Assembly (NCBI GenBank): GCA_023251675.1
Contig: JAHEYJ010000002.1
Location: 1 to 56,816, forward strand
Origin: Bacteroidota bacterium
Lineage (GTDB): Bacteria > Bacteroidota > Bacteroidia > Palsa-948
Direction of reading: 5' to 3'
DNA: 56,816 nucleotides
Made by a program: the position numbers and the translations under genes. The stretch's first letter is position 1, and each line of letters starts with the position of its first letter. Positions 5,336-55,236 of the stretch are shown in pieces. The notes under the pieces were generated by a model that was given only the letters and a program-made list of their open reading frames with translations, did not search any database and was not told where the DNA came from.

Positions 5336-5379
5336 TAGAGGTGCAAAAGGACGCAGAAGGGGAGTACGGTTATCGCGCG

Positions 5380-15434: not shown

Positions 15435-15442
15435 TATTTTTG
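15435..15442 (+). promoter_or_regulatory. -7 box TATTTTTG upstream of the sigma gene
   Basis: Matches TAnnTTTG and lies 10 nt before ATG 15453. No clean -33 TTTG was found. Confidence 0.4.
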
Positions 15443-15452
15443 TATTTCTCAA

Positions 15453-17542: not shown

Positions 17543-17546
17543 AAAT

Positions 17547-18683
17547 ATGCGCAAGTCAACTATTTTATATCTCATTTTTTTTGCCATAATTTTGATCGCT
17601 GCATGCAAGAAAGAGACTCCGGTTGAAATAAAAGAAGATCCGGTATTTTATTTTTCCGGCGCTGTGGATGGAAGCCCGGTTAAACTAAATGCAGGAGAAA
17701 ATGATTATTACATGTACTCTTCTTATTTACTTGACACAAACTCAGTGTATAATTTCCTGGCCGATCTGAAACAGATCAACTGCACCAATTGTATCAATAG
17801 GATCCAGGTTCAGATCAATGATTTTAGAGTTTCATCTCCTGCGGCGGGTGCAGTAATAGACACATCGCTTTTGGCGGGATATTATCCATACCAGTTACCC
17901 GGAGGCGCACCTACATCCTATAACGCCTATTTTACTGCAACGCCTTCCAATGATTCATCTTCGGTGCCCTCATCTTATCTATGGGATTTTGGTGACGGAA
18001 CCACTTCTGCCATTGCCAATCCCGCGCATGTTTTTTCCCATAGCGGAATTTATACGGTTTGCCTTACGATCAGCTATCTTAATTCCTGCACCAGCACGAT
18101 CTGCAACCCGGTGAAAGTTGGAGTTGCCGGTGCGGATTTCAATGCGGCCATCAATGCGCAGTCTTCTCCTGCAGGAAATACAGTTTCGCTTACAAGTACA
18201 ATAACCGGAGGGACCGCTCCTTTTACTTATTCATGGGATATGGGGGATGGAAATACTTTTACCACACAGAATGTTACGCATACTTATCTAATTGCCAATA
18301 ACTATAAAGCCTGTCTGCAGGCGACGGATGCGAATGGATACATTGCCAACACTTGCAGCAATATTTCTACACAGAATTTTCCGGGCTGCAGCACCAATTA
18401 TAATTTTATGTCGGATACAACGGGAGGAATTCCAAATCCGAATGCGTTTTCCAATGTTATTATCAAATGGACCGATAATTCAGGGCTTACCTATTCTTCA
18501 AATAATTCTTCTCAGCCGGTTGACAGCTATTTCCAGATCGTCTCTTCAGACAGCTACCTAAATAATCAAAACAACGAAACCACAAAAAAACTGCACGTTA
18601 AATTCAAATGCAAAGTATTCAACGGAAGCAATTCTCATACTATTGATAACGGGGAGGCAGTCATCGCAGTGGCTTATAAATAA
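17547..18683 (+). CDS. PKD domain-containing lipoprotein
   Basis: MRKSTILYLIFFAIILIAAC lipobox, plus two PKD signatures (WDFGDGTTS, WDMGDGNTF). Confidence 0.75.
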   Translation: MRKSTILYLIFFAIILIAACKKETPVEIKEDPVFYFSGAVDGSPVKLNAGENDYYMYSSYLLDTNSVYNFLADLKQINCTNCINRIQVQINDFRVSSPAAGAVIDTSLLAGYYPYQLPGGAPTSYNAYFTATPSNDSSSVPSSYLWDFGDGTTSAIANPAHVFSHSGIYTVCLTISYLNSCTSTICNPVKVGVAGADFNAAINAQSSPAGNTVSLTSTITGGTAPFTYSWDMGDGNTFTTQNVTHTYLIANNYKACLQATDANGYIANTCSNISTQNFPGCSTNYNFMSDTTGGIPNPNAFSNVIIKWTDNSGLTYSSNNSSQPVDSYFQIVSSDSYLNNQNNETTKKLHVKFKCKVFNGSNSHTIDNGEAVIAVAYK

Positions 18684-18760
18684 CTTTATGCTCACCCAAC
18701 CCTTTATCTGTTTTCTGCGTGTTAGTCTTTAAAGGGCAGTTAAACATAAAAACAAAATCA

Positions 18761-28544: not shown

Positions 28545-29615
28545 ATGAAAAATTTTTACATTTTATTTGTAGGTATTAGTGTTCTTTTTTCTGCAAATGG
28601 TTTTGCCCAGAAAAGAATCGCTAAAGTCAGCGTAACGAAAGTTTCCTCTTTTCAATCCGCTGAAAGAAATCAATCGCCGGTACATCCGATGAACACTAAC
28701 GATACGATCACTGCCCATTGGGATGTGATCTATCCGATGCCATCTGTAGATACGGCAGTCACATACAGTGATTTAGGAGGAGGTTTTGTTGCGGGGCAAG
28801 ATTCCTATCTTGATAAAGCAAAGGCGCAAAAATTCGATGCAACATATGGTGTTACAAGTTCAAATGGTTCTATTACAAACTTACTTATGTGGGTCGGCGC
28901 AAAAATTCAGGCAACAACCCCGGGCAATGCATCATGGGTTCCTACAATTTGGGCGGATAACGCCGGCAAACCGGGAACAGTACTTGGAACTTCTACTGCA
29001 ATTACAGTTGCGCAGATGGATACATCTTCTGCCGCTCTTCAACTGATAGGACCTATCACTGCTTTGAAAGGAGCATATAATTTGAATGCCGCGTTCAGTC
29101 CTGCCGTTGCAATTCCCGTCAATCAAATATTCTGGGCAGGATATACAATTACGTATGACTCCGGAGATTCAGCCGGTTTGGTTTCATCCACCAATGGAAA
29201 CTTCCCTGATGCGGTCACACACACCTTTGAACAATGGAGCGATAATAGCTGGAACTCTTTTAATGATGGAACCACCAATAGCTGGCAATCAGATGTAGCA
29301 CTCGCCGTATATCCCGTAGTTAGTATTGCTACCCATATCGAGGAAAGCAATAGTTCTATTGCATCTGTTAAAAATGTACCCAATCCCGCAAACGATAATA
29401 CGATTATTTATTATTTGCTGAAAGAAAGCTCAAATGTTGAATTGTCATTGTTTGATGTAACAGGGAAAAAATTAATGTCCACCAATGAAGGGCTGCAAGC
29501 CTCAGGAAATCACAAAATCAAACTGGATGTTTCTTCTCTTTTATCCGGGGTTTATTTTTATACAATTTCTGCAGGGGATTTTAAAATGACAAGCAAAATG
29601 AGCGTAGTAAAGTAA
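28545..29615 (+). CDS. T9SS type-A CTD secreted protein (cargo 4)
   Basis: A TATATTTG box lies at 28491-28498. Signal peptide present. The CTD, VPNPANDNTIIYY...VYFYTISAGDFKMTSKMSVVK, is very close to that of cargo 2. Confidence 0.8.
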   Translation: MKNFYILFVGISVLFSANGFAQKRIAKVSVTKVSSFQSAERNQSPVHPMNTNDTITAHWDVIYPMPSVDTAVTYSDLGGGFVAGQDSYLDKAKAQKFDATYGVTSSNGSITNLLMWVGAKIQATTPGNASWVPTIWADNAGKPGTVLGTSTAITVAQMDTSSAALQLIGPITALKGAYNLNAAFSPAVAIPVNQIFWAGYTITYDSGDSAGLVSSTNGNFPDAVTHTFEQWSDNSWNSFNDGTTNSWQSDVALAVYPVVSIATHIEESNSSIASVKNVPNPANDNTIIYYLLKESSNVELSLFDVTGKKLMSTNEGLQASGNHKIKLDVSSLLSGVYFYTISAGDFKMTSKMSVVK

Positions 29616-29632: not shown

Positions 29633-29664
29633 AAAAAGCCGAATTCAATTGAATTCGGCTTTTT
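29633..29664 (+). terminator. rho-independent terminator
   Basis: aaaaagccgaattc-aatt-gaattcggcttttt, a near-perfect palindrome. Confidence 0.85.
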
Positions 29665-30024
29665 CTTTTTTAAGAATCTGATTTTTTCAAATGCAAATTG
29701 TATTGAAGTAAATACGGCGGACGAAAGAATCTTTTAAAAGGTTGCATTGCTTTTAATTGCCATAAAGAGGTCTCTTAAAATATTCGCAGGCAATTTGCGT
29801 TAGAGTTGTATTCCCTTGATTTTTATTTAAACTTTGTTTTTTAAATGTATTTTAACCCAATAGTTAAAATTTCAATAAAAATCAATACTCAATAATTAAA
29901 TAGAAATAATTATTTGCCCAGAATTTGTAAAAGACTTACCTTAGCGTCCTGATTATTAGGGAAAGACTCTTTACAGATTATTTATTAACAAAAACTAATC
30001 GTAATTAACAATATTGTTTTAACT

Positions 30025-30972
30025 ATGAGAAAATATTTACTTTCAATTGTATTATCCCTTTCTGCACTATTTTCATTTGCTCAGCAGGACCCCCAATTCA
30101 GTCAAAACATGTTTGTTAAACTTCCGATCAATCCGGGTTATGCCGGAACCAGCGGAGCTATTTGTGCAACAGCGATTTATCGTAACCAATGGGTGAGTTT
30201 TCCCGGTTCTCCTAAAACTATATTATTTACAATCGATGCTCCTGTTCAGGCTTTACATGGCGGTGCCGGTCTTACGATTGTAAACGATAAGCTTGGGAAC
30301 TTTAATTTTATGCATGTGCGTGGTGCTTATTCATTTCATAAACCTCTTGGTCAAACCGGTTTGCTGGGTATTGGACTTGAGGCCGGAATACTTCAGGCAT
30401 CTGTTCAGGATAAGTGGTTAGCTCCGGACGGAACAGACGGCACAGCAGACCAGGCGATTCCAAATGAAGCCATAAGTAAATTAACGTATGATATTGGGCT
30501 GGGTGCTTACTACAGAACGCAACAGCTGTATGTTGGTCTTTCCGCTTCTCACTTACCCGGTAAGGCTGAAAAACTAACAGCTACCGAATTTAATTATCAG
30601 GCAGCGAGACATTATTATGTAATTGCTGGCTACGATTTTTTCTTAACAAGTACGTTAACACTTCGCCCATCTGTTCATGTGAAAAGCGATGCGGCTGTTA
30701 CAACATTTGATGGAAATATTAATCTCTTGTGGAACAACATGATCTGGGGCGGTGTTTCTTATCGTTTGCAGGATGCACTTGTTCCGCACATCGGATTTGC
30801 ATGGTCACCTAATCAGAAATCAACGTTGAAGATCGGATATGCATATGATCTTGGGCTGTCAGGATTAAAATCGTATCATAAGAATACGCATGAAATCATG
30901 GTAAATTATTGCATCAAGTTTGTACCTAAGGTAAAAGTCCAAAGCCACATAAACCCAAGATTTTTAAGATAA
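30025..30972 (+). CDS. porP: PorP/SprF family T9SS membrane protein
   Basis: The QQDPQFSQNMFVKLPINPGYAG N-terminal signature is present. Its position immediately upstream of gldK matches the porP-porKLMN arrangement. Confidence 0.85.
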   Translation: MRKYLLSIVLSLSALFSFAQQDPQFSQNMFVKLPINPGYAGTSGAICATAIYRNQWVSFPGSPKTILFTIDAPVQALHGGAGLTIVNDKLGNFNFMHVRGAYSFHKPLGQTGLLGIGLEAGILQASVQDKWLAPDGTDGTADQAIPNEAISKLTYDIGLGAYYRTQQLYVGLSASHLPGKAEKLTATEFNYQAARHYYVIAGYDFFLTSTLTLRPSVHVKSDAAVTTFDGNINLLWNNMIWGGVSYRLQDALVPHIGFAWSPNQKSTLKIGYAYDLGLSGLKSYHKNTHEIMVNYCIKFVPKVKVQSHINPRFLR

Positions 30973-31135
30973 TCTTTTTTATGGAATTTATTTCGGAATT
31001 GTTAATTTATAAACAGTTCATAAAGTAAGTGTCGGTTGTTTGTAACAAATCAAATAATAAAACTGATTAAAATAATGTTTCATCTGTTCCGTTTGTAAAT
31101 AAGAAAACGGCAAGATGATACAAAAATCAATATCT

Positions 31136-32614
31136 ATGAAAAAATTACTTTTCTTCGGATTGTTGGTGTTGCTTCTTAGCGCATGCAACGGGGGCGACCA
31201 CGGGGAACTGGTGGGCGTACAGGGCAGAGACCCATGGTTTCAACCGGATCCGTATGGAACACTTTATTGTCCTATGGGAAGTTTCAACCAGGGTCAAAGT
31301 GATCAGGATATCCCTTATAACTTTACGCAAAAGGCAAGAACGGTTTCTGTGCAAGCCTATTATATGGACCAAACAGAGATCTCAAACAATGAATACCGCC
31401 AGTTTGTTTATTGGGTTCGCGACTCCATTGCACGTGAGTTACTTGGAGCTGTTGATGAAGAAAAATGGAGAAATAAATTAGATCAATTCGGCGTTGAAAG
31501 AGAAGCCGCATATGAAGACAAAGGATATGATTTGATCTGGAATGAAAGACTTGAATATGACAACAAAGACGAAGAAGTACGCAATACATTAAATGATATG
31601 TATCTGCCGGTTAAAGAAAGATTTTATACCAAAAAGGAATTTGATACACGAAAATTTAACTTTCTATATTATCGTATAGATCTTAAAAAAGCGGCAAAGA
31701 AAACAAATCGTTTTCAACACAACTCTACTGCTGATGCCAATGATCCGACAAAAAGTTTTATTGACGGAGTGGGACACTCTGTTGGAGAAGTGGATACAAC
31801 AAAAGAAGGACTTGGTTATTATCTAATTGAAAACAAAGGGCCTAAAAAAGACCGCAGTGTATTTATTGTGAAGGATGTGATCAATGTATATCCTGATACA
31901 CTTGCCTGGGTACACGACTTTACGTATTCATTCAATGAACCAATGACCAATAATTATTTTTGGCATCCTGCATATGATGATTATCCTGTTGTGGGTGTGA
32001 ACTGGAAACAATGCCGCGCATTCTGCGTTTGGCGCACACAATATCTTAACAGTTATTTTACAGGCATCGGGCATTCCATTGTGAATGATTTTCGTTTACC
32101 TACTGAAACAGAATGGGAGTATTCTGCACGTGGCGGACTGGATCTGAGCCCATACCCTTGGGGCGGACCTTACATCAGAAACGCCCGCGGATGTTTCCTT
32201 GGCAATTTCAAACCAATGAGAGGGAACTATCTTCCCGACGGAGGATTTCATACTGTACATATATTTTCCTATTCTCCTAATGAATGGGGATTTTACAACA
32301 TGGCAGGAAATGCTGCGGAGTGGACCAGCAATGCATTTGAAGAGGCAGGGTACGATTTTGAACACGATCTCAACCCCGATTATACATACGAGCCTACAGA
32401 TGATGAAAAATACCAGTCTGTACGTCAGAGAAAAGTAATTCGTGGCGGTTCATGGAAAGATGTGGGGTTTTATCTTCAGAACAGCACAAGATCTTATGAG
32501 TACCAGGATACAGCAAAATGTTATATCGGTTTCCGTTGCGTGATGACGTATCTTGGAAGAGCAAGAGGAGATGATCCTACAGGACAGGAAGGTTCAAGGT
32601 TAGGTGTTAAATAA
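31136..32614 (+). CDS. gldK: gliding motility / T9SS lipoprotein GldK (PorK)
   Basis: Lipobox LLSAC plus an FGE-sulfatase/SUMF1-like domain (RLPTETEWEYSARGG, RGGSWKD). Alternative start at 31115. Confidence 0.9.
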   Translation: MKKLLFFGLLVLLLSACNGGDHGELVGVQGRDPWFQPDPYGTLYCPMGSFNQGQSDQDIPYNFTQKARTVSVQAYYMDQTEISNNEYRQFVYWVRDSIARELLGAVDEEKWRNKLDQFGVEREAAYEDKGYDLIWNERLEYDNKDEEVRNTLNDMYLPVKERFYTKKEFDTRKFNFLYYRIDLKKAAKKTNRFQHNSTADANDPTKSFIDGVGHSVGEVDTTKEGLGYYLIENKGPKKDRSVFIVKDVINVYPDTLAWVHDFTYSFNEPMTNNYFWHPAYDDYPVVGVNWKQCRAFCVWRTQYLNSYFTGIGHSIVNDFRLPTETEWEYSARGGLDLSPYPWGGPYIRNARGCFLGNFKPMRGNYLPDGGFHTVHIFSYSPNEWGFYNMAGNAAEWTSNAFEEAGYDFEHDLNPDYTYEPTDDEKYQSVRQRKVIRGGSWKDVGFYLQNSTRSYEYQDTAKCYIGFRCVMTYLGRARGDDPTGQEGSRLGVK

Positions 32615-32666
32615 AGAATAAGAATAGAACAATTCAATAATAAACAACAATCTAAATCACAATCTT

Positions 32667-33701
32667 ATGAGCAAGTTCGGTGAATTCATGGAATCCAAAT
32701 TTGGAAAAACAATTATGAACTACGTTTATAGCTGGGGAGCTTCTGTCGTTATTGCGGGCGCTCTTTTTAAGATTCTACACTGGCCAGGCGCAAACATCAT
32801 GCTTATCGTAGGAATGGGAACTGAAGCACTGGTGTTTTTTGTTTTTGGTATCGACCCTACCCAGGTACATATGGATCTTGATTGGTCGTTGGTTTACCCT
32901 GAATTAAAATTCGGAGCCGAAGAAGAAAAAGAAAAGAAAGGAGATAAGAAATCGCTTACCGAACAATTGGATAATTTGCTTGAGGAAGCAAAGATCGGCC
33001 CTGAACTTATGGAAAGTTTGGGTTCCGGATTGAAAAACTTAAGCGACAACACTGCAAAAATGAATACCCTTGCCGATGCAAGTGTTGCAACCAATGAGTT
33101 CACTGACAATATGAAAAATGCATCTAAAAAAATCACTACTCTTTCAGATGCATACGATAAAGCATCGGGCTCCATCAGCGGGTCCATCAGTGATCTTGAA
33201 AAGGCATCCAGCAAAACTTCGCAGGCGCTTGAGCTTATTACCAACTCAACGCAGCAGCAGGCCGGTTCTTACAGTGAGCAGCTTCAGAAGGTATCAAAGA
33301 ACCTGGGTTCACTGAACAGCGCATATGAACTTCAGCTTCAGAATTCAAAAGAGAACATCAGTTCTGCTCAAAAAGCAAACGAAGGAATAAACAAACTTGT
33401 TTCTACGCTTGAAGCCTCTATGCAATCTTCTCAGAAAGATGCAGTAGCTTATGGAGAACATCTCAAGAAAACTTCAGGCAATATCCAGTCTTTAAATTCA
33501 GCTTACGAATTGCAGATACAGAATATCAGCAGTGCGAACAAATCGTATCAGAATTTCGAAAAAGCAATGGCAAGCCTTGGAGAAACAGTAGGAGATGCTC
33601 AGAAATTTAAAACACAAATAGCAGCGTTGTCGGAAAACCTGGCATCATTGAACACGGTTTATGGAAACATGTTAACTGCAATGAGCATCACCAGAAAATA
33701 A
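32667..33701 (+). CDS. gldL: gliding motility / T9SS protein GldL (PorL)
   Basis: Two N-terminal TM helices (WGASVVIAGALFKILHWPGANIMLIVGMGTEALVFFVFG) followed by a coiled-coil tail. Confidence 0.9.
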   Translation: MSKFGEFMESKFGKTIMNYVYSWGASVVIAGALFKILHWPGANIMLIVGMGTEALVFFVFGIDPTQVHMDLDWSLVYPELKFGAEEEKEKKGDKKSLTEQLDNLLEEAKIGPELMESLGSGLKNLSDNTAKMNTLADASVATNEFTDNMKNASKKITTLSDAYDKASGSISGSISDLEKASSKTSQALELITNSTQQQAGSYSEQLQKVSKNLGSLNSAYELQLQNSKENISSAQKANEGINKLVSTLEASMQSSQKDAVAYGEHLKKTSGNIQSLNSAYELQIQNISSANKSYQNFEKAMASLGETVGDAQKFKTQIAALSENLASLNTVYGNMLTAMSITRK

Positions 33702-33744
33702 AGAATTATAACCAGATACTTTAACTCTCTAATCTTTATACTAT

Positions 33745-35394
33745 ATGGCAGGAGGAGGCACACCCAGACAGAAAATGATCAACCTGATGTACCTTGTACT
33801 TCTGGCTCTGCTGGCGATGAACGTATCCAAAGAGATTCTTAATTCCTTTGCAATCATCAACAACGGTTTAGTGAAAACCAATGAAAGTTTTGCTGCCAAA
33901 AACGAAATCACCTATAATGCTTTCGACCTGGCTTTGTTGAATGACCCTGTAAAAGTAAGACCTTACTATGACAGGGCGCAAGCGGTTAAAAAACGCTCTC
34001 AGGAAATGTTCGACTACATTGAAAAAGTAAAAGGGGACCTTATTCTCGAGGTTGAAAAAAAAGAAAGTGTTGAAATAGAAGGCCGAAACGGACAGGATAG
34101 CACGGTTAAACTGATATCCAATGTAATGTTCATGGAAGCTAAAGATGATGCCAACACGCCTACGTTGTTTTTTATGGGAGATGCAGACCTGGAAGCAAAA
34201 CCCGGAACAAAAGCATTCGAATTCAAAGAAAAGATAAAAAAATTGAAAGAAGACCTCATGACGTATGTTGATCCAAAGGACAGGGAAAATATCCGTTTGG
34301 GACTCGATATCGGTAATATGTATTCACCGCACGAGGGCAGAGAAATCACATGGGAAACAAATACTTTTTACCATAACCCGGCAATCGCGGTTATTGCTCT
34401 TCTTACCAAAATGCAGAATGACTGCAAGAATTCAGAAGCGGATATCATTAATTCTCTTTACAAAAGAATTGACGTCGCCTCTTTTAAATTTGATACACTT
34501 TCTGCTCGTGTTGTTGCGAATACCAATTACGTCCTGTTAGGAGAAGAATACAGAGCGGAGATATTTATGGCTGCTTTCAGCACCACCTCCAATCCGTCAG
34601 TTTGGCTTGGAAATGTTGACAGCGTGAACAATAAAATTATTGGCGCTATAGATTCTACTTCTATTAAAGTATCAAAAGGAATTGGCGTATATACCATTTC
34701 TCCTTCTGCTGAAGGAACTGTTCAGTACGGAGGTTTAATTCGCATGAAAGATCCTGCTGATCCTACAGTGATTCACTCGTATCCTTTTAAATCAGAATTT
34801 AAAGCAGCGCGGCCCGCCATTGTAGTTTCTCCTGATAAAATGAATGTATTCTATATTGGCCTTGATAATCCCGTTTCCATTTCTGTTCCCGGTATTGCTG
34901 CTGAAGACCTGCAGCCATCCGTTGGCGGTGGAAGCATCAGCGGGTCTCGCGGTAAATATAATGTTCGTGTAAGTAATACAGCAAAAGAAGCGGTTGTAAA
35001 CGTTTCTGCAAGAACAAGAAATGGCACTAAATCCATGGGTCCCGGTGTAAAATTCCGTATTAAACCAGTACCCAATCCTATTGCTACAGTTTATGGAAAA
35101 CGCGGAACAGATGTTATTAAACAGGGAGAGTTACAATTTATTAAAGGAGTTGTACCTATGCTTGACAATTTCGAGTTTGATCTTAAATTTCCTGTAGTTT
35201 CTTTTGACGTTTCGATGAACGTAAACGGTCTGGAAGTCACTGAATCAACAAACGGTCCTTCACTAAGTGAAAAACAACAAGCATTAATTAAAAGGGCAAA
35301 AAGAGGAAACAAAGTTTATATTGAAAAAGTTAGAGTAACTAAGCCCGGAGGTACTATTGTCGATATTGGTAGTGTCAACTTGAAAGTCATATAA
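33745..35394 (+). CDS. gldM: gliding motility / T9SS protein GldM (PorM)
   Basis: PRQKMINLMYLVLLALLAMNVSKEILNSF is the typical GldM N-terminus. Confidence 0.9.
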   Translation: MAGGGTPRQKMINLMYLVLLALLAMNVSKEILNSFAIINNGLVKTNESFAAKNEITYNAFDLALLNDPVKVRPYYDRAQAVKKRSQEMFDYIEKVKGDLILEVEKKESVEIEGRNGQDSTVKLISNVMFMEAKDDANTPTLFFMGDADLEAKPGTKAFEFKEKIKKLKEDLMTYVDPKDRENIRLGLDIGNMYSPHEGREITWETNTFYHNPAIAVIALLTKMQNDCKNSEADIINSLYKRIDVASFKFDTLSARVVANTNYVLLGEEYRAEIFMAAFSTTSNPSVWLGNVDSVNNKIIGAIDSTSIKVSKGIGVYTISPSAEGTVQYGGLIRMKDPADPTVIHSYPFKSEFKAARPAIVVSPDKMNVFYIGLDNPVSISVPGIAAEDLQPSVGGGSISGSRGKYNVRVSNTAKEAVVNVSARTRNGTKSMGPGVKFRIKPVPNPIATVYGKRGTDVIKQGELQFIKGVVPMLDNFEFDLKFPVVSFDVSMNVNGLEVTESTNGPSLSEKQQALIKRAKRGNKVYIEKVRVTKPGGTIVDIGSVNLKVI

Positions 35395-35420
35395 TTAAGA
35401 TATCTATAAAACAAAATACT

Positions 35421-36398
35421 ATGAAAAGATTATCAAAATCAGCATTTCTGTTTAATGCAGTCTTGTTTTTTGTAATCGCGTTCACAGCTGTGTCCATCGC
35501 GCAGGGGCCTCCCAACCAAGGGGGAAACCCTCCTCCCGCTCCTACAAGTTCGGTTACTTCTACTTCACCTTTTGGCGCGCATGGAGGTATTCTTGAACCT
35601 CCGGGAGGTGGAGTTCTTGATGGTGTTTATATTCCCGAACATTTGACGTACAGAAAGCCCCTTCCTTACGTTTATGAACGCGAGGCAGACATCATGTGGT
35701 CAAAGAGAGTGTGGCGGGTAATCGACCTTCGTGAGAAAATGAATCACCCGTTGTATTATCCAACGGATGATTTAGCAAAAAGACCATCCTTATTCAAAGT
35801 ACTTCAGGATGGCATTTATTCTGGTAAAATAAATACTGTATTTACATTCGATCCGTTTACAATGGAGTTTGGGCCCGCATTGACGCTTCCGGAAATTGTT
35901 AAAACGATGACTGAACAGCTGGCGTTGAAAGATTCTATCGGTAATCCTCTAATGGATTCAGTTGGAAATCAGATCATGAAACCGGATACGCTTAGAGCGG
36001 ATAGGATTTCTCAGTATTATGTTAAGGAAGACTGGTTTTTTGAAAAACAGAGGTCTGTGATGGATGTCAGAATTATTTCCATTGCACCGGTCGTGGAGGT
36101 AAATGATCCTGTAAATGGAAAATATACTTACCATCCTCTTTTTTGGCTTTACTATCCTGCAATAAGAGATTATCTTTCACGATTTTACTGTTATAATCCA
36201 TATAACGATGCAGAATGGCGAACCTATGATGAAATATTTCATAAACGCATGTTCAGCAGTTATACTATGATGGAATCAAATGTATACAACAGGACAATTT
36301 CTGCTTACCTGCCGGGGCAAGGAATGGATCAAATGCTCGAATCAGAAAGAATTAAAGATGATATTTTCAAGTTCGAACATGACATGTGGCATTTCTAG
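35421..36398 (+). CDS. gldN: gliding motility / T9SS protein GldN (PorN)
   Basis: It is the fourth gene of the gldKLMN string. Signal peptide present, and WSKRVWRVIDLREKMN and EDWFFEKQRS are GldN-like. Confidence 0.85.
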   Translation: MKRLSKSAFLFNAVLFFVIAFTAVSIAQGPPNQGGNPPPAPTSSVTSTSPFGAHGGILEPPGGGVLDGVYIPEHLTYRKPLPYVYEREADIMWSKRVWRVIDLREKMNHPLYYPTDDLAKRPSLFKVLQDGIYSGKINTVFTFDPFTMEFGPALTLPEIVKTMTEQLALKDSIGNPLMDSVGNQIMKPDTLRADRISQYYVKEDWFFEKQRSVMDVRIISIAPVVEVNDPVNGKYTYHPLFWLYYPAIRDYLSRFYCYNPYNDAEWRTYDEIFHKRMFSSYTMMESNVYNRTISAYLPGQGMDQMLESERIKDDIFKFEHDMWHF

Positions 36399-36448: not shown

Positions 36449-38267
36449 ATTTTACTGAAGCTGAAAAATAATCTGTAATTATTTTTGCTTTTGCTTTTCC
36501 GACTGTCTTTATTATTTTTTCCACCGGCGTTTTTTTTATTTCTTCTACGGATTTGAATTTAGAAAGAAGTTTTTTTGCAGTTTTTTCACTGACGCCTTTT
36601 ATTTCAGTGAGTTCAGAATAAATGCTTTCCCGTATCCTTCTGCCCCTGTGATGTTTTAACCCAAACCGGTGGGCTTCATCCCGCATGCGCTGAATTAATT
36701 TAAGTGTTTCCGATTTTTTATTCAGGTACAGCGGAAGTGAATCCCCCGGATAGTAAATTTCTTCTAGTTTTTTTGCAATTCCGATTACTGGAATTTTTCC
36801 ATTAAGGTTCAGTGTTTCGAGGCTTTTAAGAGCCGCGCTCACCTGCCCTTTTCCCCCATCAATAATGATAAGCTGGGGAAGAGGTTTTTTCTCCCCCATC
36901 ATTCTTTTATAACGCCTGTATATAACCTCTTCCATAGAAGCAAAGTCATTCGGGCCTTCCACTGTTTTTATGTTGAAGATGCGGTAATCGTTTTTACTGG
37001 GCTTTGCATTTCTGAAAACAACACATGCAGATACAGGGTGTGCGCCTTGAATATTGGAATTATCAAAGCATTCGATCAGAACAGGCAATTCTTTCAGGCG
37101 CAGATCATTCATGGCAGTGGTAAGTATTCTATCTGAGGATTTTTCTTTTGAAGTCAGCGAGAGCCTGCTGATTTTATCCTTGCGGTAGTATTCTGCGTTT
37201 CGCTCAGAAAGTTCCAGCAATTTTTTCTTGTCTCCGATCTTAGGAACAATGAATTTAACATCGGGATAATTTACTTCCTGTAAAAAAGGAACAATGATCT
37301 CTTTCGCCTCACTTTGAAACCGCTGGCGCAATTCAGCAATAGCAAGCATTAATAACTCCTCCTTTGATTCATCCAGTTTCTTTTTCATCTCAACGGTATG
37401 CGCCTGAACAATAGCGCCATTCACCACTTTCAAAAAATTCACATATCCAAAGGTTTCATCGGTAAGAATTGAAAATACATCGGCATCTTCAATGGAGGGG
37501 CTGACAATAACGGAACGACTCTGATATTTTTCAAGAGAATTAATTTTCTCTTTCAATATCTGTGCGTTTTCAAAATCATAGTTCTCAGCAAAATTCCACA
37601 TCAGCTCTTTCAGTTGTTTTATTACAGAGGAAATATTGCCTTTCAGTATTTGTATTATCTGGTTTATGCTTTCGTTATAATTTTCTTCAGATTGAAAATT
37701 TTCGCATGGCCCCTTGCAGTTTTTCATATGGTATTCAAGGCATACCCTGAATTTTTTCTTTTCTATATTTTCTGCAGAAAGATTCAGGGAACAATTTCTC
37801 AGTGAAAACAGTTTTCTGATCAGATCAAGAAGGGTATGCATGGTCCGCAAAGAAGTATAAGGGCCGAAGTAATGAGAGCCATCCCGGATTAAATTCCGGG
37901 TTTGAAAAACCCGGGGAAACCGTTCGTGCTTAATGCAAATCCATGGATACGTTTTGTCATCTTTCAGGGCAACATTATACCGGGGCTGGTATTTCTTAAT
38001 AAGATTGTTTTCCAGCAGCAGGGCATCAAGTTCTGTACTTACAACAATGAACTTTATGTCTGTAATGCTGGTAACGAGATAGAGAAGTTTGCCATACTCG
38101 TGTTTTTTAGTGAAGTAGGAGGAAACCCTTTTTTTAAGATTTTTGGCTTTTCCGATATAAATTATTTTCCCGTGTTTGTCAAAATACTGATAAACACCGG
38201 GATGCTCAGGAAGTGAACTGACAATTTTTAACAACGACTCAGAGAATTTCTTTTTCTCATTTGTCAT
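36447..38267 (-). CDS. uvrC: excinuclease ABC subunit C
   Basis: 606 aa. GIY-YIG N-terminus (GVYQYFDKHGKIIYIGKAKNLKKR), the UvrC endonuclease core and a C-terminal HhH domain are present. Confidence 0.93.
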   Translation of the reverse strand: MTNEKKKFSESLLKIVSSLPEHPGVYQYFDKHGKIIYIGKAKNLKKRVSSYFTKKHEYGKLLYLVTSITDIKFIVVSTELDALLLENNLIKKYQPRYNVALKDDKTYPWICIKHERFPRVFQTRNLIRDGSHYFGPYTSLRTMHTLLDLIRKLFSLRNCSLNLSAENIEKKKFRVCLEYHMKNCKGPCENFQSEENYNESINQIIQILKGNISSVIKQLKELMWNFAENYDFENAQILKEKINSLEKYQSRSVIVSPSIEDADVFSILTDETFGYVNFLKVVNGAIVQAHTVEMKKKLDESKEELLMLAIAELRQRFQSEAKEIIVPFLQEVNYPDVKFIVPKIGDKKKLLELSERNAEYYRKDKISRLSLTSKEKSSDRILTTAMNDLRLKELPVLIECFDNSNIQGAHPVSACVVFRNAKPSKNDYRIFNIKTVEGPNDFASMEEVIYRRYKRMMGEKKPLPQLIIIDGGKGQVSAALKSLETLNLNGKIPVIGIAKKLEEIYYPGDSLPLYLNKKSETLKLIQRMRDEAHRFGLKHHRGRRIRESIYSELTEIKGVSEKTAKKLLSKFKSVEEIKKTPVEKIIKTVGKAKAKIITDYFSASVK

Positions 38268-39001
38268 TTAACAGAATCTGATTTTGCGGGAAGTGGCACT
38301 GTATGAACAGGGGCTGTATCTGTTTCCGGCGCTTCTTTTTTATTTTTCCCCTTTTTTGTTTTTTTTCTATGCGATGAAATGTTTGCAGAATCGGAGGCAG
38401 CAATTTTTATTTCAGCAGGTATATGCCGGCTGGTTGTATCCGGAGGAGGGATCACTTCTACAGGCGTAGTGACAGCGGAAGAATCTATAGGAACAATGCC
38501 GGCTTTGGTTTTACTTAATTTCTGTTTTTTATCCGGTTTCAGTATTGTTTTCTCGGCAATACTTGTTTGTTGAGTATTTATTTTATTAGATAATGCGTCG
38601 GCCTCTTTCAAAATAGAATCGGTATTCTTCTCGGTGAGGGCGAAAGAATCAATTTCAACAGTATCGAGTTTTACGATTGAAGTAGCTGCCTGAATCTGCT
38701 TTGAAGTATCGATAACGTTGAAAGCATGTTGAGTGGAATCAGCAGATGGAATATTTTCGGTTGGCAGTGATCGGTAATACTGAACCGTTTTAAAAATTCC
38801 CCATAAGCCAAGTAAAGCAAGCAGTGCAATTGCAGAAATAAGAATTTGTTTTTTGTTGACCGAAATAGACAGGGGTTGTCTTTTTGCAACAAGCAGCACT
38901 TCAATCTCGCTCCAGTCTACGCCAGGCAAATTACCTTCTGTAGATTTTAATTTTTCTTTAATAAAATTGTCGAGCTGATTATTGCCTGAAGGTTGCTTCA
39001 T
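38264..39001 (-). CDS. sigma-linked single-pass membrane protein (anti-sigma-like, low-complexity C-terminus)
   Basis: The N-terminus (NLPGVDWSEIEVLL) is followed by the TM helix ILISAIALLALLGLWGIF. It starts 11 nt after the sigma gene and its stop overlaps the uvrC ATG. Confidence 0.55.
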   Translation of the reverse strand: MKQPSGNNQLDNFIKEKLKSTEGNLPGVDWSEIEVLLVAKRQPLSISVNKKQILISAIALLALLGLWGIFKTVQYYRSLPTENIPSADSTQHAFNVIDTSKQIQAATSIVKLDTVEIDSFALTEKNTDSILKEADALSNKINTQQTSIAEKTILKPDKKQKLSKTKAGIVPIDSSAVTTPVEVIPPPDTTSRHIPAEIKIAASDSANISSHRKKTKKGKNKKEAPETDTAPVHTVPLPAKSDSVK

Positions 39002-39012: not shown

Positions 39013-39597
39013 TTATTTTGCAATCAATTTTGCGAGGTTCTTTCTCAAGTTAAATTTGGCTTTTGAAAAAGAATCTTTGGATGCATATTCGCTGATGTCA
39101 AGTAATTTAGAGATCTCAGAATGAGAATAGCCTTCCAGTTCGTGCAAATTATACACCGCGCGGTAGGAGGGGGTTAATTGCTGGAGGGCTTTAATAATCA
39201 TCTGTTTGTTTGCTGACTGAATTATTTTTTCGTCCGTAACCTCTTCTGAAGAAGGTCTTTCTGCGTCCCGTATACTTACCGTACTGCTCACAAAAAATTC
39301 CCGCTTATTATTGTTGTGCATGTAATGAATAGCGGAAAGGATCATTTCCTTTTTTATCCATTCTTCAAATGAAATAATTCCGGATCTTTGATCCTTTTTT
39401 GAATTCAGCCCGGGATAGTTCCGTATTTCGTTAAAAATATTTTTAAATCCGTTCAGTAATATTTCTTTTGCTTCCTGAGAATTCTTTGCATATCGAATAC
39501 ACAAATCCATCATGTTGGCCGCGTACCTTTCAAAAAAAGCACGCTGACAATTATTGTCATGTTTACTGCACCCTTGTATGAGCTCGTCCTCCGTCAT
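39013..39597 (-). CDS. ECF-type sigma-70 family factor
   Basis: Start set at MTEDELIQGCSKHDNNCQRAFFERY. Region 4 is YSHSEISKLLDISEYASKDSFSKAK. Paralog of the 40852-41406 gene. Confidence 0.8.
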   Translation of the reverse strand: MTEDELIQGCSKHDNNCQRAFFERYAANMMDLCIRYAKNSQEAKEILLNGFKNIFNEIRNYPGLNSKKDQRSGIISFEEWIKKEMILSAIHYMHNNNKREFFVSSTVSIRDAERPSSEEVTDEKIIQSANKQMIIKALQQLTPSYRAVYNLHELEGYSHSEISKLLDISEYASKDSFSKAKFNLRKNLAKLIAK

Positions 39598-39709: not shown

Positions 39710-40846
39710 TTAATGCCTTTTTAGGGTAACCGTTCCCTTTTGAGAATGAGAAATGCCATCCGATCCGTTTGCCTGAATGGTGTAAAAGTAGATTCCGTCC
39801 GGGGCATCGTCTCCGTTTTGCAGCTTTCCGCTCCAGTTCCCTTCGAGGGAGTTCCACTCACAAACAATTCCGCTTTTGGGGCTGAATATCACGACTCCTA
39901 CAGAAGCAATATTTTTCATTTTGAAGAAGAAAAGATCATTTTCACCGTCCCCGTTAGGTGTAAAAATATTAGGAATATCATAAATGTCTGAGCTGGGTTT
40001 CACTTCAATGTTTATTTTATCGGAGGCTGCACCTGATGCATTTTTCGCATTGAGAATTACAATGTAATTACCCGCCTTTTCAAATGTATGAACGGGAGCA
40101 TTATCTCTTGAGCCCGATCCATCGCCAAAATCCCAGCTTAAAGAAGAGGCGACACCCTGGTTAATGAACTCAACTGTGAGCGGAGCTTCACCTGAAGTTG
40201 AGTTCACAAAAATATTTACAGTAGGAAGCGATATGTTTTCTTCCAACGCATCGGAATTATTGGATGTATTTGTATTGGAAGAGTTGTTTTGATTTTTATT
40301 CCACCGTATCATCCCCCCATCGCCCTTCGGTGCATTGCCATATTTATGTGCGGGCTGTGAGGAAGTAGAATTCTCTGTATTTGAATTCTCAGAAAAATTT
40401 TCATTTGCAGAAGAGGCGCCTGCGCTTTTTGGATTGTCAGAAAAATCTATTTCTGCACTCTTGTTTGATGAATGAAAAGTGGAAGCAGTTTGTGTGGCGG
40501 GTTGCGAGTTAGAAAGGCTGGTTGACGGTTGAAGTTCCTGAACATTATTTTCCTTTGTTTCTTTTGGATTGGTTTGGATTTGTGAATGATGAATATTTGA
40601 AGAACCTGATGTTTTTTTATCCCCATGTCCGGATGAAAAATACAATACACTTGCTGTTATAATAGCGAGGGCCGCAGCTCCTGCAACAAATTTCCCAACG
40701 ACAAATTTTGCGGCAGTTCCTGAAGCACTTCCCGCAGAAGCACTCATTCCACTCTGCACATTAGCCCATGCGTTGGCATTTACATCAGACTCAAAGTGCT
40801 CAAAAGTTTCTTTAAAAAGCTTTTCTATATTTTCTGCGTTCTTCAT
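39710..40846 (-). CDS. sigma-linked membrane protein with PKD domain and T9SS type-B (CHU_C) sorting domain
   Basis: The domain order is: N-terminus MKNAENIEKLFKETFEHFESDVNANAWANVQ, then TM helix FVAGAAALAIITASVLYF, then an S/N-rich linker, then PKD (WDFGDGSGS), then IFTPNGDGENDLFFF...GIYFYTIQA...VTLKRH. Confidence 0.7.
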   Translation of the reverse strand: MKNAENIEKLFKETFEHFESDVNANAWANVQSGMSASAGSASGTAAKFVVGKFVAGAAALAIITASVLYFSSGHGDKKTSGSSNIHHSQIQTNPKETKENNVQELQPSTSLSNSQPATQTASTFHSSNKSAEIDFSDNPKSAGASSANENFSENSNTENSTSSQPAHKYGNAPKGDGGMIRWNKNQNNSSNTNTSNNSDALEENISLPTVNIFVNSTSGEAPLTVEFINQGVASSLSWDFGDGSGSRDNAPVHTFEKAGNYIVILNAKNASGAASDKINIEVKPSSDIYDIPNIFTPNGDGENDLFFFKMKNIASVGVVIFSPKSGIVCEWNSLEGNWSGKLQNGDDAPDGIYFYTIQANGSDGISHSQKGTVTLKRH

Positions 40847-40851: not shown

Positions 40852-41406
40852 TTAATTGCCGGTAATTTTTTCCTGAGAAGCGGTTTCCTCCTGTATCTTA
40901 TTCTGTAAATGTGTTTTTGCCCTTGAGTATTGTGATTTTGAAGTTCCTTCAGTTATACCAAGCCGATCTGCAATTTCTTTGTGAGAATAACCTTCTATGG
41001 CATACAAATTAAAAACGGTTCTGAAACCTGTAGGCAACTGCTGAATCATTTTCAAAAGATCTTTTTCATTTATATGTTCTCCTACGTGGTTATTTCCAGG
41101 TACCAGGTATCTCGCATCTTCAATATCAATATTCATTTTCATTGCTTTGTTTTTTCTCAGATAGGTAAGTGCTTCATTAACCATTATTTTTCTTATCCAT
41201 CCTTCCAGTGAACCCGAACCCCTGAATGTTTCAATCTTTTCATACACCCGGATAAACCCGTTTTGCAGCATATCATCGGCCTCTTCTCTTCTTTCTGCAT
41301 ATCGGATACATACACCCATCATTTTCCTGCTAAACCGTTCAAAGAGCAATTTCTGAGCCTTGGGGTTCTTTTCTATACATCCTCTGACAAGTTCTTCATC
41401 TGTCAT
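40852..41406 (-). CDS. ECF-type sigma-70 family factor
   Basis: MTDEELVRGCIEKNPKAQKLLFERFSRKMMGVCIRYA. Region 4 is YSHKEIADRLGITEGTSKSQYSRAK. Confidence 0.85.
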   Translation of the reverse strand: MTDEELVRGCIEKNPKAQKLLFERFSRKMMGVCIRYAERREEADDMLQNGFIRVYEKIETFRGSGSLEGWIRKIMVNEALTYLRKNKAMKMNIDIEDARYLVPGNNHVGEHINEKDLLKMIQQLPTGFRTVFNLYAIEGYSHKEIADRLGITEGTSKSQYSRAKTHLQNKIQEETASQEKITGN

Positions 41407-41539
41407 GTGAATCTTTTATTAGGATGCTTTTTGTCAAGATTTAGTTGCATAGAAATCAGCTAAAATTACCTGTTTTTATGGGCTATTTGTTAAAGTAAGT
41501 TAATATAAGAAGATTATACAAATATATTTCCCTAAGTAC

Positions 41540-52091: not shown

Positions 52092-55055
52092 TTATTTGGA
52101 GCTCCTGAGCAAGGCGACATTGCCTTTGATGATCAGGTCTTTGAACTTAGCAATGTAGAAATAGGTTCCCTCTTTAGCAGGGGTTCCGCCTTTTGTTGTT
52201 CCATCCCAGCACTTCTCCGTATCAGAACTTTCAAACATTTTTACACCCCAGCGGTCCCACACTTCCATATCAACACATTGCGCAAGAACCTTTTTTAAAG
52301 AGTCAGGTGATGTAATGTTTGGAACATTCTGAATGTCCATAGCAGGGTGAAAGCAATCATTTATGCCGTCACTATTAGGTGTAAACACATTTGCAGGAAG
52401 TATGTTCAGGTACCGGCCAATATCATTTATAGAAAAAGTGGTATCAATGGTATCTCTGCAAATAGAATTAATGGCAACTACAGAAACATTGTAAACGCCA
52501 TTAAAATCGTAAATGTGAGCGGGCGGAGCAGAGGTCCAGATTATTCCTCCTGGAGAGGGCTGATATTGAGTAAGGTTTGAGTTGTCACCAAAAGTCCAAT
52601 AAACGGAAGAGCCGTTATCGCTAACGTTCGCCATTAAAGGCACAACATATCCGTCACAGGTTATATAAGGAGTCCATTGAGTCCAGGAAACAGAAGGAAT
52701 GGTTACTACATAGACCGTAGCGTATGCCGTGTCTTTACATCCATAGGCATCAGTAACTACAACGGAAAGATTAGTAGTCGTATTCGGCGTAATGGTAGGA
52801 TTCTGTGCAGTATCGCTGCTTAGTGGAGGCGAATTTGGCGGATACCAATTCCAGTGAACGGGCAATTGAGATGCAGGCACGTTGCTTACATTGGCATTCA
52901 ATAATGCGGTACTTCCGGTACAAACAGAAGGACTTGCAATAGCTGAGATCTGTGGGATCGCGCCAACTACAACCGGTACTGAAGCGGTATTGGTACATCC
53001 ATTTCCGTCCGTTACTAATACAGTATAGGTATTGGTTGAGGCCGGATTAGCTATAGGATTCGGGCAAGTAGTACAGCTTAGTCCTGTGGATGGAGACCAT
53101 AAATAAGTAACTATCGAGGATGTAACTGCACTGATGTTAGCTGTGGTTTGTCCAAAGCAAATGGTGCTTGGCGGCAATGCAGAAACATTAGGTTTAGGAG
53201 TAATTCCAACCGAAGCAATGCCCGTATTCGAACAACCACTTCCATCCGTTCCATATACAGTATAAGTTGTTGCAGAGGTTGCACAAGAAAGAACGGCATT
53301 ACCAAAGGCACTGCTCAAATAAGTAGTCGGGCTCCAGGTATAAGTAGCCGCACCTGATGCAGTAAGCGTAGCGCAAACTCCGTTGTTAGGAGTAGCACAA
53401 ACGGTTCCTGAAACTGCAGTAATAACCGGAAGCGGAGCAGGGTAAACATGTGCAGTTGCAATGGATACACATCCGCCGGCATCTGTTCCGGTAATAGTAT
53501 AGTTAGATGCAGACGCGGTAGTGACAGTAATACAAGTAGTTGTTTGTCCTGTAGGGTTCCATACATAAGTTAAGCCTGTACCTGCGGCGCACAATACTCC
53601 GGAATTACTCTGGCAGATCGTTGCGTTTGTAGCAGCAAATGTGGGCGGTGGCAATATCGTTATGGGTACATACACGGTCGTATCTGTACATCCTGCCTGC
53701 GACGAGACAGTAAGTGAGGCCGTATAGGTTCCCCCAGTGGTTGGATAAGTAATTATTCCTGGGTTCTGAGTGCCTGCCGAGACAGGTGACCCTCCCGGGA
53801 ATGACCATGCCCAACCGGAAATTGTTCCGCCAGAAATTGTTGTATTATCCGTGAAAGTAACCTTGTTGCAGTTTACCGTATAGGTCATTGCCGTGTTGAT
53901 AATGGTCGGTTGAAGCGTATATACTTCATAATACCCGCAGCCTGAACCCGGAACAATATATAATATAACCGTATCGGTTAACTGCGGATTAACAATGATG
54001 CTGCTGGTTGACCCTCCGGTTGACCAGCTGTAAGAATAGGTAGGATCCAATGGAGCTGTCAGCAGAACAGAATCTTCGCCCACACAATATTGTGAAGCGG
54101 TGGATAATGTGCCGCAAGAAAAATCCCAGTAAGATTGTGCAAAGTGGCCGCTTAAAGCGCAGTCAGCATTAATAATTTCAATCGTTAACGTTTGACCGAT
54201 ATAGGGATTTAAATTAATTCCAACCAATGTCCATGGCTTGTAGTAAGAAACAGAATTCACGTTACAGGCAGAAGTATAAAAACCCGGTAAGTTGGCAGCA
54301 GCAACGTAGGTAAAACTTCCGCAGGGTATTGGAGTGCCGTTTGAATCATAAATGTTCAAGCTCACAAATGGTTGTTCCGCAGCCGTGTGTCCCGGAGGAT
54401 TTTCCAATACCACTGCATAGGTGAAAGTAAAGTTTGTATCCTGGGCGGTAACAAAAAGCGGATAGGTTAATTGTTCTGCGCAGCCGTCCAAACATCCTCC
54501 GTTAAGTCCGTTGGTTTGTATCTCTCCGATCTGAAGAGAAGCGTTTCCAAAGCCGGGAGCGACAACCGGAATGGGGGGAGCGCCTGCAGCCGGCCCGGGA
54601 GTACAGGCATCAACACCTGCTCCGCTTGTGAGATTAAAGCGAGGTGAAGTTGGAGCAAGAGCGCCAGACCATCCAATAGGTAATGAACCGGCAAAATCTC
54701 CGGTTCTGGCAACCCAAGATCCCCATCCGTTCTCACCGCCCATATCTGAACAGGTAGCAAGTGGAGCTGGATTTTGTTTTTCTCTTATATCGACAGAATG
54801 GTGAATCGCATTTACCTTTCTTCCAGAGAACATCAGTTCTTTTCTTTTCTCAATAATTTTTTCAATCGTAGCAGCAGGGATCCCATCATTTTTTAATTCC
54901 TTACGGTAAAGACCTTCATCTTTCCAAACCCATTCTTTATACGTTTTTGCATTATCTGCATTCGTTTTATCCTGAGCAATGGCGCTAATTCCTGTAAAAA
55001 GAAATGAGGCAGACAAAATGATTCCGCCGGTAAGAGTAAGTATGTTTTTCATCAA
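52092..55055 (-). CDS. large cell-surface protein with T9SS type-B (CHU_C) sorting domain
   Basis: 987 aa. Signal peptide ends in AIAQ. Contains Ig/PKD-like repeats. The C-terminus has NVFTPNSDGINDCFHP...GTYFYIAKF...ALLRSSK. Confidence 0.8.
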   Translation of the reverse strand: MMKNILTLTGGIILSASFLFTGISAIAQDKTNADNAKTYKEWVWKDEGLYRKELKNDGIPAATIEKIIEKRKELMFSGRKVNAIHHSVDIREKQNPAPLATCSDMGGENGWGSWVARTGDFAGSLPIGWSGALAPTSPRFNLTSGAGVDACTPGPAAGAPPIPVVAPGFGNASLQIGEIQTNGLNGGCLDGCAEQLTYPLFVTAQDTNFTFTYAVVLENPPGHTAAEQPFVSLNIYDSNGTPIPCGSFTYVAAANLPGFYTSACNVNSVSYYKPWTLVGINLNPYIGQTLTIEIINADCALSGHFAQSYWDFSCGTLSTASQYCVGEDSVLLTAPLDPTYSYSWSTGGSTSSIIVNPQLTDTVILYIVPGSGCGYYEVYTLQPTIINTAMTYTVNCNKVTFTDNTTISGGTISGWAWSFPGGSPVSAGTQNPGIITYPTTGGTYTASLTVSSQAGCTDTTVYVPITILPPPTFAATNATICQSNSGVLCAAGTGLTYVWNPTGQTTTCITVTTASASNYTITGTDAGGCVSIATAHVYPAPLPVITAVSGTVCATPNNGVCATLTASGAATYTWSPTTYLSSAFGNAVLSCATSATTYTVYGTDGSGCSNTGIASVGITPKPNVSALPPSTICFGQTTANISAVTSSIVTYLWSPSTGLSCTTCPNPIANPASTNTYTVLVTDGNGCTNTASVPVVVGAIPQISAIASPSVCTGSTALLNANVSNVPASQLPVHWNWYPPNSPPLSSDTAQNPTITPNTTTNLSVVVTDAYGCKDTAYATVYVVTIPSVSWTQWTPYITCDGYVVPLMANVSDNGSSVYWTFGDNSNLTQYQPSPGGIIWTSAPPAHIYDFNGVYNVSVVAINSICRDTIDTTFSINDIGRYLNILPANVFTPNSDGINDCFHPAMDIQNVPNITSPDSLKKVLAQCVDMEVWDRWGVKMFESSDTEKCWDGTTKGGTPAKEGTYFYIAKFKDLIIKGNVALLRSSK

Positions 55056-55236
55056 TGGGTTGTTAAAGTTTGGTAGCTATTCCTTTGAGATGAAATGCCA
55101 GCCAAAATGGTTGCATGGCATATCTATCTTATTAGGGATAGCGAAGATAATTGAAAAATCGTAATCTACAAGTCAATAGAATTACATTTTAAAGGAAAAA
55201 TTAAGATTCTAAATCTTGCAGGAAGAGTGGGAGAAA

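Follow-up and report, generated by a model that had tools for sequence, protein, structure and literature searches.

A sigma factor gene paired with a putative anti-sigma factor that ends in a type IX secretion system sorting domain of type B

How does a protein encoded directly behind a sigma factor gene come to end in a type IX secretion system (T9SS) sorting signal? The question is raised by a gene in a 56,816-nucleotide stretch of a Bacteroidota bacterium genome (GenBank assembly GCA_023251675.1, contig JAHEYJ010000002.1, positions 1 to 56,816), the whole of which is referred to here as the window. The open reading frame (ORF) at 39710..40846 on the − strand encodes a protein of 378 amino acids (aa). 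An earlier note on this DNA had described the protein as membrane-bound, tethered to a sigma factor and ending in a T9SS type-B C-terminal sorting domain (CTD), and had placed its gene 5 nt after that of an extracytoplasmic function (ECF) sigma factor, here termed sigma1. The coordinates of the two genes (40852..41406 and 39710..40846) confirmed this spacing, the ATG being located 5 nt past the sigma1 stop codon. To our knowledge, little is understood of how Bacteroidota adjust T9SS cargo production to what the machine can handle, except for the PorXY-SigP-PorA system of Porphyromonas gingivalis, and we know of nothing of the kind for the type-B branch. The analysis presented here makes it on balance probable that the two genes form an autoregulated ECF sigma/single-pass anti-sigma module coupling the synthesis of type-B cargo to the T9SS; such a pair would probably serve to match surface-protein production to secretion.

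Layout of the 378-aa protein and its pairing with an ECF sigma factor gene

The features of the gene pair are as follows.

39710..40846 (− strand): whole gene, 378 aa, putative single-pass anti-sigma factor ending in a T9SS type-B sorting module
40745..40846 (− strand): residues 1–34, conserved N-terminal motif, presumed cytoplasmic sigma-binding element (alignment conservation)
40637..40705 (− strand): residues 48–70, transmembrane signal-anchor helix, probably N-in/C-out (hydrophobicity and flanking charge)
40208..40636 (− strand): residues 71–213, S/N/T/E-rich disordered linker, presumably periplasmic (predicted local distance difference test, pLDDT, ~30; length kept, sequence not)
40001..40207 (− strand): residues 214–282, PKD domain (PF00801, E 7e-14; pLDDT >90)
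39716..39979 (− strand): residues 290–377, T9SS type-B sorting domain, CHU_C (PF13585, TIGR04131)
40852..41406 (− strand): ECF sigma factor sigma1, 184 aa (Sigma70_r2, PF04542, 6.7e-16; Sigma70_r4_2, PF08281, 1.9e-16)

The ORF coordinates, the hydrophobic helix, the S/N/T-rich linker, the PKD domain and the type-B CTD, all claimed in the earlier note, were borne out by hidden Markov model (HMM) searches, hydrophobicity and AlphaFold2 modeling. In the HMM searches PF13585 matched residues 290–374 (E 3.8e-13; 49.8 bits, cutoff 27) over profile positions 2–85 of 86, and TIGR04131, the model of the T9SS type B sorting domain, scored 36.5 bits, narrowly above its cutoff of 35. The sorting domain stops at residue 377 of 378 and contains the type-B blocks PNxFTPNGDGxND, WxG and GxYxY as well as the terminal L-x-R strand. 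Its columns P297, N298, D300, D304, W338, G340 and Y353 were found to be conserved in at least 90% of 134 sequences and may correspond to motifs A–E of the published description (PMC12618676). The AlphaFold2 model, built from a 25-sequence alignment, showed pLDDT >90 for residues 211–378 and ~30 for residues 72–205, indicating a disordered linker, and placed helices at residues 6–15 and 28–31 of the N-terminus with low confidence. When the model was compared with the PDB using Foldseek, the PKD domain resembled that of ColG (TM-score 0.77), the other neighbours were generic PKD/Ig domains and fragments of PorU and GhpA, and the N-terminus gave no informative match. At about residues 159–176 (40319–40372), inside the otherwise unconserved linker, a motif HKYG(N/K)A..G......R was observed, which is kept in relatives of at least 43% identity (partly in P0043) and not in remote relatives; it could be a cleavage or docking site.

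The topology was assigned heuristically from helix position, flanking charge and conservation, using 122 representatives that carry both the N-terminal motif and the CTD. The Kyte-Doolittle 19-residue mean of the 378-aa protein rises to 1.97 at about residues 48–70. The helix, which thus starts at about residue 48, starts at a median of residue 56 in the family (range 40–95), the net charge of the first 35 residues averages about −3.5, and the mean net charge is +1.0 in the 12 residues before the helix and −1.1 in the 12 residues after it. Since the most conserved stretch precedes the helix and the charges are distributed in this manner, the helix fits an N-in/C-out signal anchor and not a cleaved leader. 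A cleavable Sec signal peptide, as in T9SS cargo, is not what the N-terminus looks like, given the late start of the helix, the conserved acidic 34-residue motif ahead of it and the flanking charges; the check for such a peptide proposed in the earlier note has therefore come out in favour of its reading. The distance from the transmembrane helix to the CTD is bimodal in the same representatives, being 129–173 aa in the members without a PKD domain and 193–232 aa in those with one (exceptions, 100 and 184), and no more than 0–5 residues ever follow the CTD. The low-complexity spacer stays near 130–160 residues while its sequence drifts. Because linker length is conserved although linker sequence is not, the length of the spacer would seem to matter, in keeping with a spacer that has to span the periplasm.

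A full-length search recovered about 50 homologues at 40–66% identity and about 20 at 25–32%, nearly all of them 310–393 aa long and from uncultured Bacteroidota. Outside the CTD, whose blocks are conserved, the N-terminus is the best-conserved part of the protein, with the consensus NIEKLFKExFxxFEADVNPxVWxNVQxGI, in which F11, V22 and W27 do not vary among 25 sequences, the most distant of them with an overall identity of 25%; the linker sequence is unconserved. A HMMER scan of 1.84 billion 50%-identity representatives with a profile of the N-terminus and helix yielded 1723 clusters with E ≤ 1e-3, of which 383 reached E ≤ 1e-10. A word-indexed protein search with the N-terminal alignment returned 9 short fragments only and was uninformative. 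Among the best 134 family members aligned, 120 contain CHU_C and 78 contain PKD, and those without CHU_C are mostly truncated gene fragments. Among these 134 members there were two matches to Por_Secre_tail (best E 4.4e-4), too weak for an exchange of the CTD for a type-A domain to be claimed. Another protein, P0148, has four tandem copies of the N-terminal motif and a beta-barrel-like C-terminal end instead of the CHU_C module. A cultured member is present in Crocinitomix catalasitica (WP_027419717.1), where it is annotated merely as a 'T9SS type B sorting domain-containing protein'. The family is large and is without an earlier description as regulatory.

The neighbouring sigma1 gene encodes a protein that scored 99.7 bits with TIGR02937 (cutoff 42.9) and consists of sigma-70 regions 2 and 4 only, as ECF factors do. 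It does not belong to the SigP family (PG0214/GFO_1088), as its score with NF058625 was 81.7 bits against a cutoff of 130. The survey of related genomes for an ECF sigma gene next to a type-B-CTD gene, suggested in the earlier note, showed the sigma gene to be immediately upstream in 10/10 other loci examined. The two genes overlap by 4 nt in L081, L083, L098, L087 and L001, by 8 nt in L085, by 11 nt in C. catalasitica (L099), by 14 nt in L019 and by 17 nt in L032, and are separated by a 9-nt gap in L086. L032 is from a Bacteroidales metagenome-assembled genome, and its protein has a CHU_C domain of 64.5 bits and an N-terminal motif too divergent for the family HMM. The remote loci have entirely different flanking genes, and the synteny of asd, a second sigma pair and uvrC is found only in close relatives. 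As a control, 80 genome loci were collected by a scan of genome contigs with the full-length alignment, most of them coding for generic PKD-CHU_C proteins. In 77 of these, found by PKD and CHU_C similarity alone, both the N-terminal motif and an adjacent sigma gene are absent, and only L001, L019 and L032 are sigma-coupled. Hence, the constant adjacency in one set and its absence in the other define a specific, conserved two-gene module. The position directly downstream of an ECF sigma gene, conserved as it is here, is the standard one for a cognate anti-sigma factor.

A promoter motif shared with a type-B cargo gene

Three further features of the window connect the pair with T9SS cargo.

41419..41451 (− strand): ECF-type promoter of the sigma/anti-sigma operon, −35 ATGCAAC, 17-nt spacer, −10 CATCC; position weight matrix (PWM) score 21.7 bits
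55085..55117 (− strand): second sigma1-type promoter, cATGCAACC-N-CATCT, 35 nt before the cargo ATG; PWM score 28.9 bits
52092..55052 (− strand): candidate regulon member, 986-aa exported type-B cargo protein (CHU_C 3.4e-15, PKD 2.9e-08)

A two-block motif, (A)TGCAAC(C) and, 17 nt after GCAAC, [CT][AG]TC[TC], was found upstream of the sigma gene in nine loci, i.e., the eight loci first compared and then L098. Its −10 block ends 13–32 nt before the sigma ATG across these loci and 15 nt before it in the window. The maximum PWM score in the shuffled null was 17.2 bits. The string GCAAC-N17-CATCY occurs twice in the window (41422–41448 and 55088–55114) against an expectation of 0.26. The motif differs from the housekeeping −7 box of Bacteroidota, TAnnTTTG; its 'AAC' −35 block and CGT/CAT-C −10 block are said to resemble ECF promoters as generally described by Staron and colleagues in 2009.

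The second of these sites precedes the gene of the 986-aa cargo protein, which has a signal-peptide-like N-terminus (MKNILTLTGGIILSASFLFTGISAIAQD), a PKD domain and a type-B CTD. At 26–29% identity, the entire PKD and CTD module of the 378-aa protein can be aligned with the C-terminal ends of the two type-B cargo proteins encoded nearby. The motif was also present upstream of three of the four cargo orthologues examined: 34 nt upstream in L095 (53% identity), 31 nt upstream in L096 (43% identity; L081 stems from this sample too) and, in L097 (62% identity), overlapping the called start and 34 nt before the likely true ATG. The fourth orthologue, at 3001–5451 of GCA_016213435.1, JACRAL010000099.1 (L098), has no motif, and its gene directly follows the sigma1/anti-sigma pair and is in turn followed by the second sigma pair, linking regulator and target by neighbourhood. 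Sites outside the training set of the matrix precede type-B cargo genes in two further loci, L023 (27 nt before the gene of a 732-aa protein) and L013. A scan of metagenome contigs with the 986-aa cargo gave remote matches of at most 37% identity (32% for the sole long match, L088); the matching gene was not preceded by the promoter motif, and the scan was uninformative. Sigma1 thus appears to switch on the large type-B cargo gene at 52092–55052, and the motif shared by its own operon, this gene and the orthologues of the latter may be taken as new support for a link to the T9SS.

Tandem 21-bp repeats containing GAAT..ATTC palindromes were noted upstream of the cargo gene in L095 (~2800–2890) and L098 (~2800–2860); a further regulator may bind to them, and they have no clear equivalent in the window. 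A third promoter-like site of the window was scored as well.

29716..29748 (− strand): third sigma1-type promoter-like site, membership uncertain; PWM score 26.9 bits

This site was not in the training set. It lies between a type-A-CTD gene and porP, pointing away from porP, and no ORF follows it. The 88 nt downstream fold with z = −4.9, and a strong terminator hairpin with a T-run (29634–29665) is located ~80 nt on. The corresponding spacer of L083 showed no such site, and an Rfam search around it gave sub-threshold matches only, driven by the terminator hairpin. It could mark the start of a small RNA that depends on the sigma factor and adjoins the T9SS operon.

Neighbouring genes of the window

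A complete T9SS core operon, porP/sprF-gldK-gldL-gldM-gldN, is present at 30025–36398 on the + strand, 3.3 kb from the gene of the 378-aa protein, and only uvrC and the second sigma pair separate the two. The operon is found next to the pair in the window and in L083 and is absent from L081 and from all remote loci; proximity to it was therefore rejected as a part of the system.

The second sigma pair directly follows the 378-aa protein gene. It comprises a divergent sigma gene without a Pfam match for region 2 (39013–39597, − strand) and, after it, the gene of a 245-aa single-pass protein with a lysine-rich tail (38264–39001, − strand), and it is syntenic in L081, L083 and L098. As it has a housekeeping-type −7 box of its own (TAAGTTTG), conserved in the same three loci, this pair is probably outside the sigma1 operon. 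A third ECF sigma gene (15399–16013, + strand) overlaps by 4 nt the gene of a 510-aa protein (16010–17542, + strand), in which a short N-terminal segment and a single transmembrane helix are followed by ~225 aa of K/E/S-rich linker and, at the C-terminus, by a domain resembling an outer-membrane beta-barrel (PF13568, 26.2 bits, just under the cutoff of 27). This protein may represent another envelope-spanning anti-sigma design, and the C-terminal end of P0148 is similar to its own. According to the earlier note, the N-terminus of the 378-aa protein resembles those of both other sigma-adjacent proteins. This held only in part: the family HMM of the N-terminal motif missed both (scores about −1), and a comparison of the N-terminal profile with the 38264 protein and its orthologues using hhalign gave a marginal match (P = 7.7e-4, probability 25%) in which the conserved W is aligned.

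The window is rich in T9SS substrates. The gene of a 492-aa Ig_7/PKD/CHU_C protein (55237–56715, − strand) is located directly upstream of the regulated cargo gene. Proteins with type-A CTDs are encoded at 18719–20377 (+ strand), this one also PKD-rich, and at 28545–29615 (+ strand), and a PKD protein in which no CTD was detected is encoded at 17523–18683 (+ strand).

Proposed mechanism, alternatives and known systems

In the mechanism favoured here, the short, conserved and acidic N-terminal motif would hold sigma1 in the cytoplasm, and the periplasmic part would comprise a disordered spacer of ~140 residues followed by a PKD and type-B CTD module like that of type-B cargo. Sigma1 would drive the operon to which it belongs as well as at least one large gene for type-B cargo (52092–55052), so that the anti-sigma factor would be a membrane-tethered surrogate of that cargo. 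A free type-B branch of the T9SS, i.e., a PorP/SprF-type shuttle and the translocon, would engage the tethered CTD, and this engagement, through pulling or exposure to proteolysis, would inactivate the anti-sigma factor, free the sigma factor and allow cargo to be made. The cargo would then compete for the machinery, newly made anti-sigma factor would stay intact and sigma1 would be shut off. This sign of the feedback seems more sensible than the sensing of a jam because the predicted regulon contains cargo. A more far-reaching version, which is offered tentatively, is that of a checkpoint: the protein would be a tethered decoy cargo, whose CTD is captured across the periplasm, by way of the 140-residue spacer, by the proton-motive-force-driven T9SS or by a PorP/SprF shuttle. 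Capture would inactivate it, and adhesin-like type-B cargo would be licensed for synthesis only while the type-B export branch has capacity to spare. Together with the neighbouring beta-barrel-ended anti-sigma-like protein, such a decoy would define a class of envelope-spanning anti-sigma factors.

Several observations weigh against this mechanism. No recognised anti-sigma domain (zf-HC2/RsrA-like class I, RskA, FecR, etc.) was detected by Pfam and NCBIfam searches at E ≤ 1, a check that the earlier note had proposed; a PDB sequence search with the N-terminal profile found no relative, and AlphaFold2 confidence is low across the N-terminus. An adjacent gene for a cognate PorP/SprF-like shuttle is common for type-B substrates, though not universal. 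No such gene adjoins the pair in the window, where the sole PorP-family gene (30025–30972) heads gldKLMN 8.7 kb away, nor does one adjoin it in the related loci examined, and the proximity of the T9SS operon is not conserved, being absent from L081. The extra promoter sites of L023 and L013 are biased evidence because these loci had been selected for containing CHU_C genes, and the −10 box is not recognisable in C. catalasitica. A small-residue triplet near the end of the helix (family consensus AGS/VWYF) is a conceivable cleavage point, and the CHU_C fold could serve solely as a binding domain. The interpretation of the earlier note as a whole is thus partly supported: the conserved adjacency and an N-terminus that does not look like a cleaved signal peptide speak for it, and the similarity to the other two N-termini is weak.

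The possibility of a binding domain leads to a first alternative, in which the protein is a genuine anti-sigma factor whose PKD and CHU_C domains form a periplasmic sensor that never meets the T9SS translocon. It would bind, for example, unsecreted type-B cargo, a periplasmic chaperone or an envelope ligand, and would signal by conventional regulated proteolysis. This is unlikely in our view, though more likely than the other alternatives. Ig-like domains are common sensor modules and the Foldseek neighbours are only generic PKD/Ig domains, but the domain lies above the curated type-B cutoffs with its conserved blocks kept, and its position, always 0–5 residues from the C-terminus, is that which a secretion signal must have. 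A shuttle gene is not adjacent, whereas type-B cargo is found within the putative regulon, and the ~140-aa linker keeps its length without sequence conservation, as would be expected of a spacer reaching the outer membrane. A precedent for a sensor is the CTD of PorA in P. gingivalis, which doubles as a periplasmic signalling ligand of PorY without needing export; an engineered inner-membrane-tethered PorA still signals, yet is not exported (PMC12152298).

A second alternative, which we hold to be improbable, is that the 378-aa protein is not an anti-sigma factor but a co-transcribed target of sigma1. It would then be a protein of the surface or the membrane, its conserved N-terminus would serve some other purpose, for example localisation, and sigma1 would be under different control. 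The lack of a known anti-sigma domain and the failure of the family HMM to find the other two sigma-adjacent proteins of the window would be explained in this way. It is harder to reconcile with a sigma gene that overlaps or abuts in 10/10 other contexts, the standard position of a cognate anti-sigma factor, with the canonical anti-sigma layout of cytoplasmic motif, single transmembrane helix and variable extracytoplasmic domain, with the combination of the N-terminal motif and a different C-terminal module in P0148, and with the weak profile similarity to the N-terminus of the protein adjacent to the second sigma factor. Finally, that the protein is ordinary T9SS cargo, its first ~70 residues an unusually long cleaved signal peptide and its sigma adjacency meaningless, is very improbable: all characterised CTD proteins are exported cargo (PMC9143113, PMC12618676) and the family consensus has small residues (the triplet AGS) close to where the helix ends, but the most strongly conserved part of the protein is the 34-residue stretch ahead of the helix, with a net charge of about −3.5, the start of the helix falls at residues 40–95 across the family, and the adjacency is kept in unrelated neighbourhoods while 77/80 ordinary PKD-CHU_C loci are without it.

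Should the coupling of type-B cargo synthesis to the T9SS hold, the consequences would extend beyond this locus. The family is widespread in environmental Bacteroidota, and the compact two-gene module, with a defined promoter motif and a target gene, is present in the cultured gliding bacterium C. catalasitica. If engagement of the CTD takes place with the protein still fixed in the inner membrane, the protein would be a natural probe of substrate recognition by the T9SS and of pulling across the periplasm. Database annotation would need correcting, as members are currently named 'T9SS type B sorting domain-containing protein', 'PKD domain-containing protein' or 'gliding motility-associated C-terminal domain-containing protein'. 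Full-text literature searches returned no description of an anti-sigma factor carrying a T9SS sorting domain, and PKD or gliding-associated partners are not mentioned in the main text of the ECF re-classification paper (PMC7826278). An ECF anti-sigma factor that senses by means of a secretion signal would be without precedent in the literature searched.

Among known systems, the PorA-PorY/PorX-SigP pathway of P. gingivalis is similar in that the C-terminal sorting domain of a T9SS protein also serves in signalling (PMC7712824, PMC12152298). However, PorA is a free cargo protein with a type-A CTD and a normal signal peptide, and it signals via a two-component system and not by sequestering a sigma factor. 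In the 378-aa family, the CTD is of type B and is natively fused through a transmembrane helix to a putative sigma-binding motif; sigma1 also scores below the SigP model cutoff (81.7 vs. 130 bits) and belongs to a different sigma family. FecR-type systems, including the SusC-coupled ones of Bacteroidota, likewise have a single-pass protein encoded beside an ECF sigma gene, whose periplasmic part contacts an outer-membrane protein (PMC9249621), as is presumed for the 378-aa protein. In contrast to these, no FecR domain was detected in the 378-aa protein, and its presumed outer-membrane partner is a PorP/SprF shuttle or the T9SS translocon and not a TonB-dependent transducer.

Type-B CTDs bind PorP/SprF-type shuttles, which in P. 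gingivalis is the PorP of the core operon, and type-B cargo such as SprB and PG1035 has a C-terminal domain of the same family, often after PKD/Ig domains and at the extreme C-terminus (PMC9143113, PMC12618676). Such cargo carries a cleavable Sec signal peptide and is released to the cell surface, whereas the 378-aa protein has a conserved 47-residue segment, presumably cytoplasmic, a predicted signal-anchor helix and a sigma partner. In the FlgM/sigma-28 system, the machine that secretes the anti-sigma factor FlgM also secretes, at a later stage, the substrates induced by sigma-28, and expression thus follows secretion competence. The likeness to this system is confined to the proposed checkpoint logic. 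There is no homology, and FlgM is soluble and fully exported via the flagellar type III apparatus, whereas the 378-aa protein would be membrane-anchored and at most engaged, pulled or clipped.

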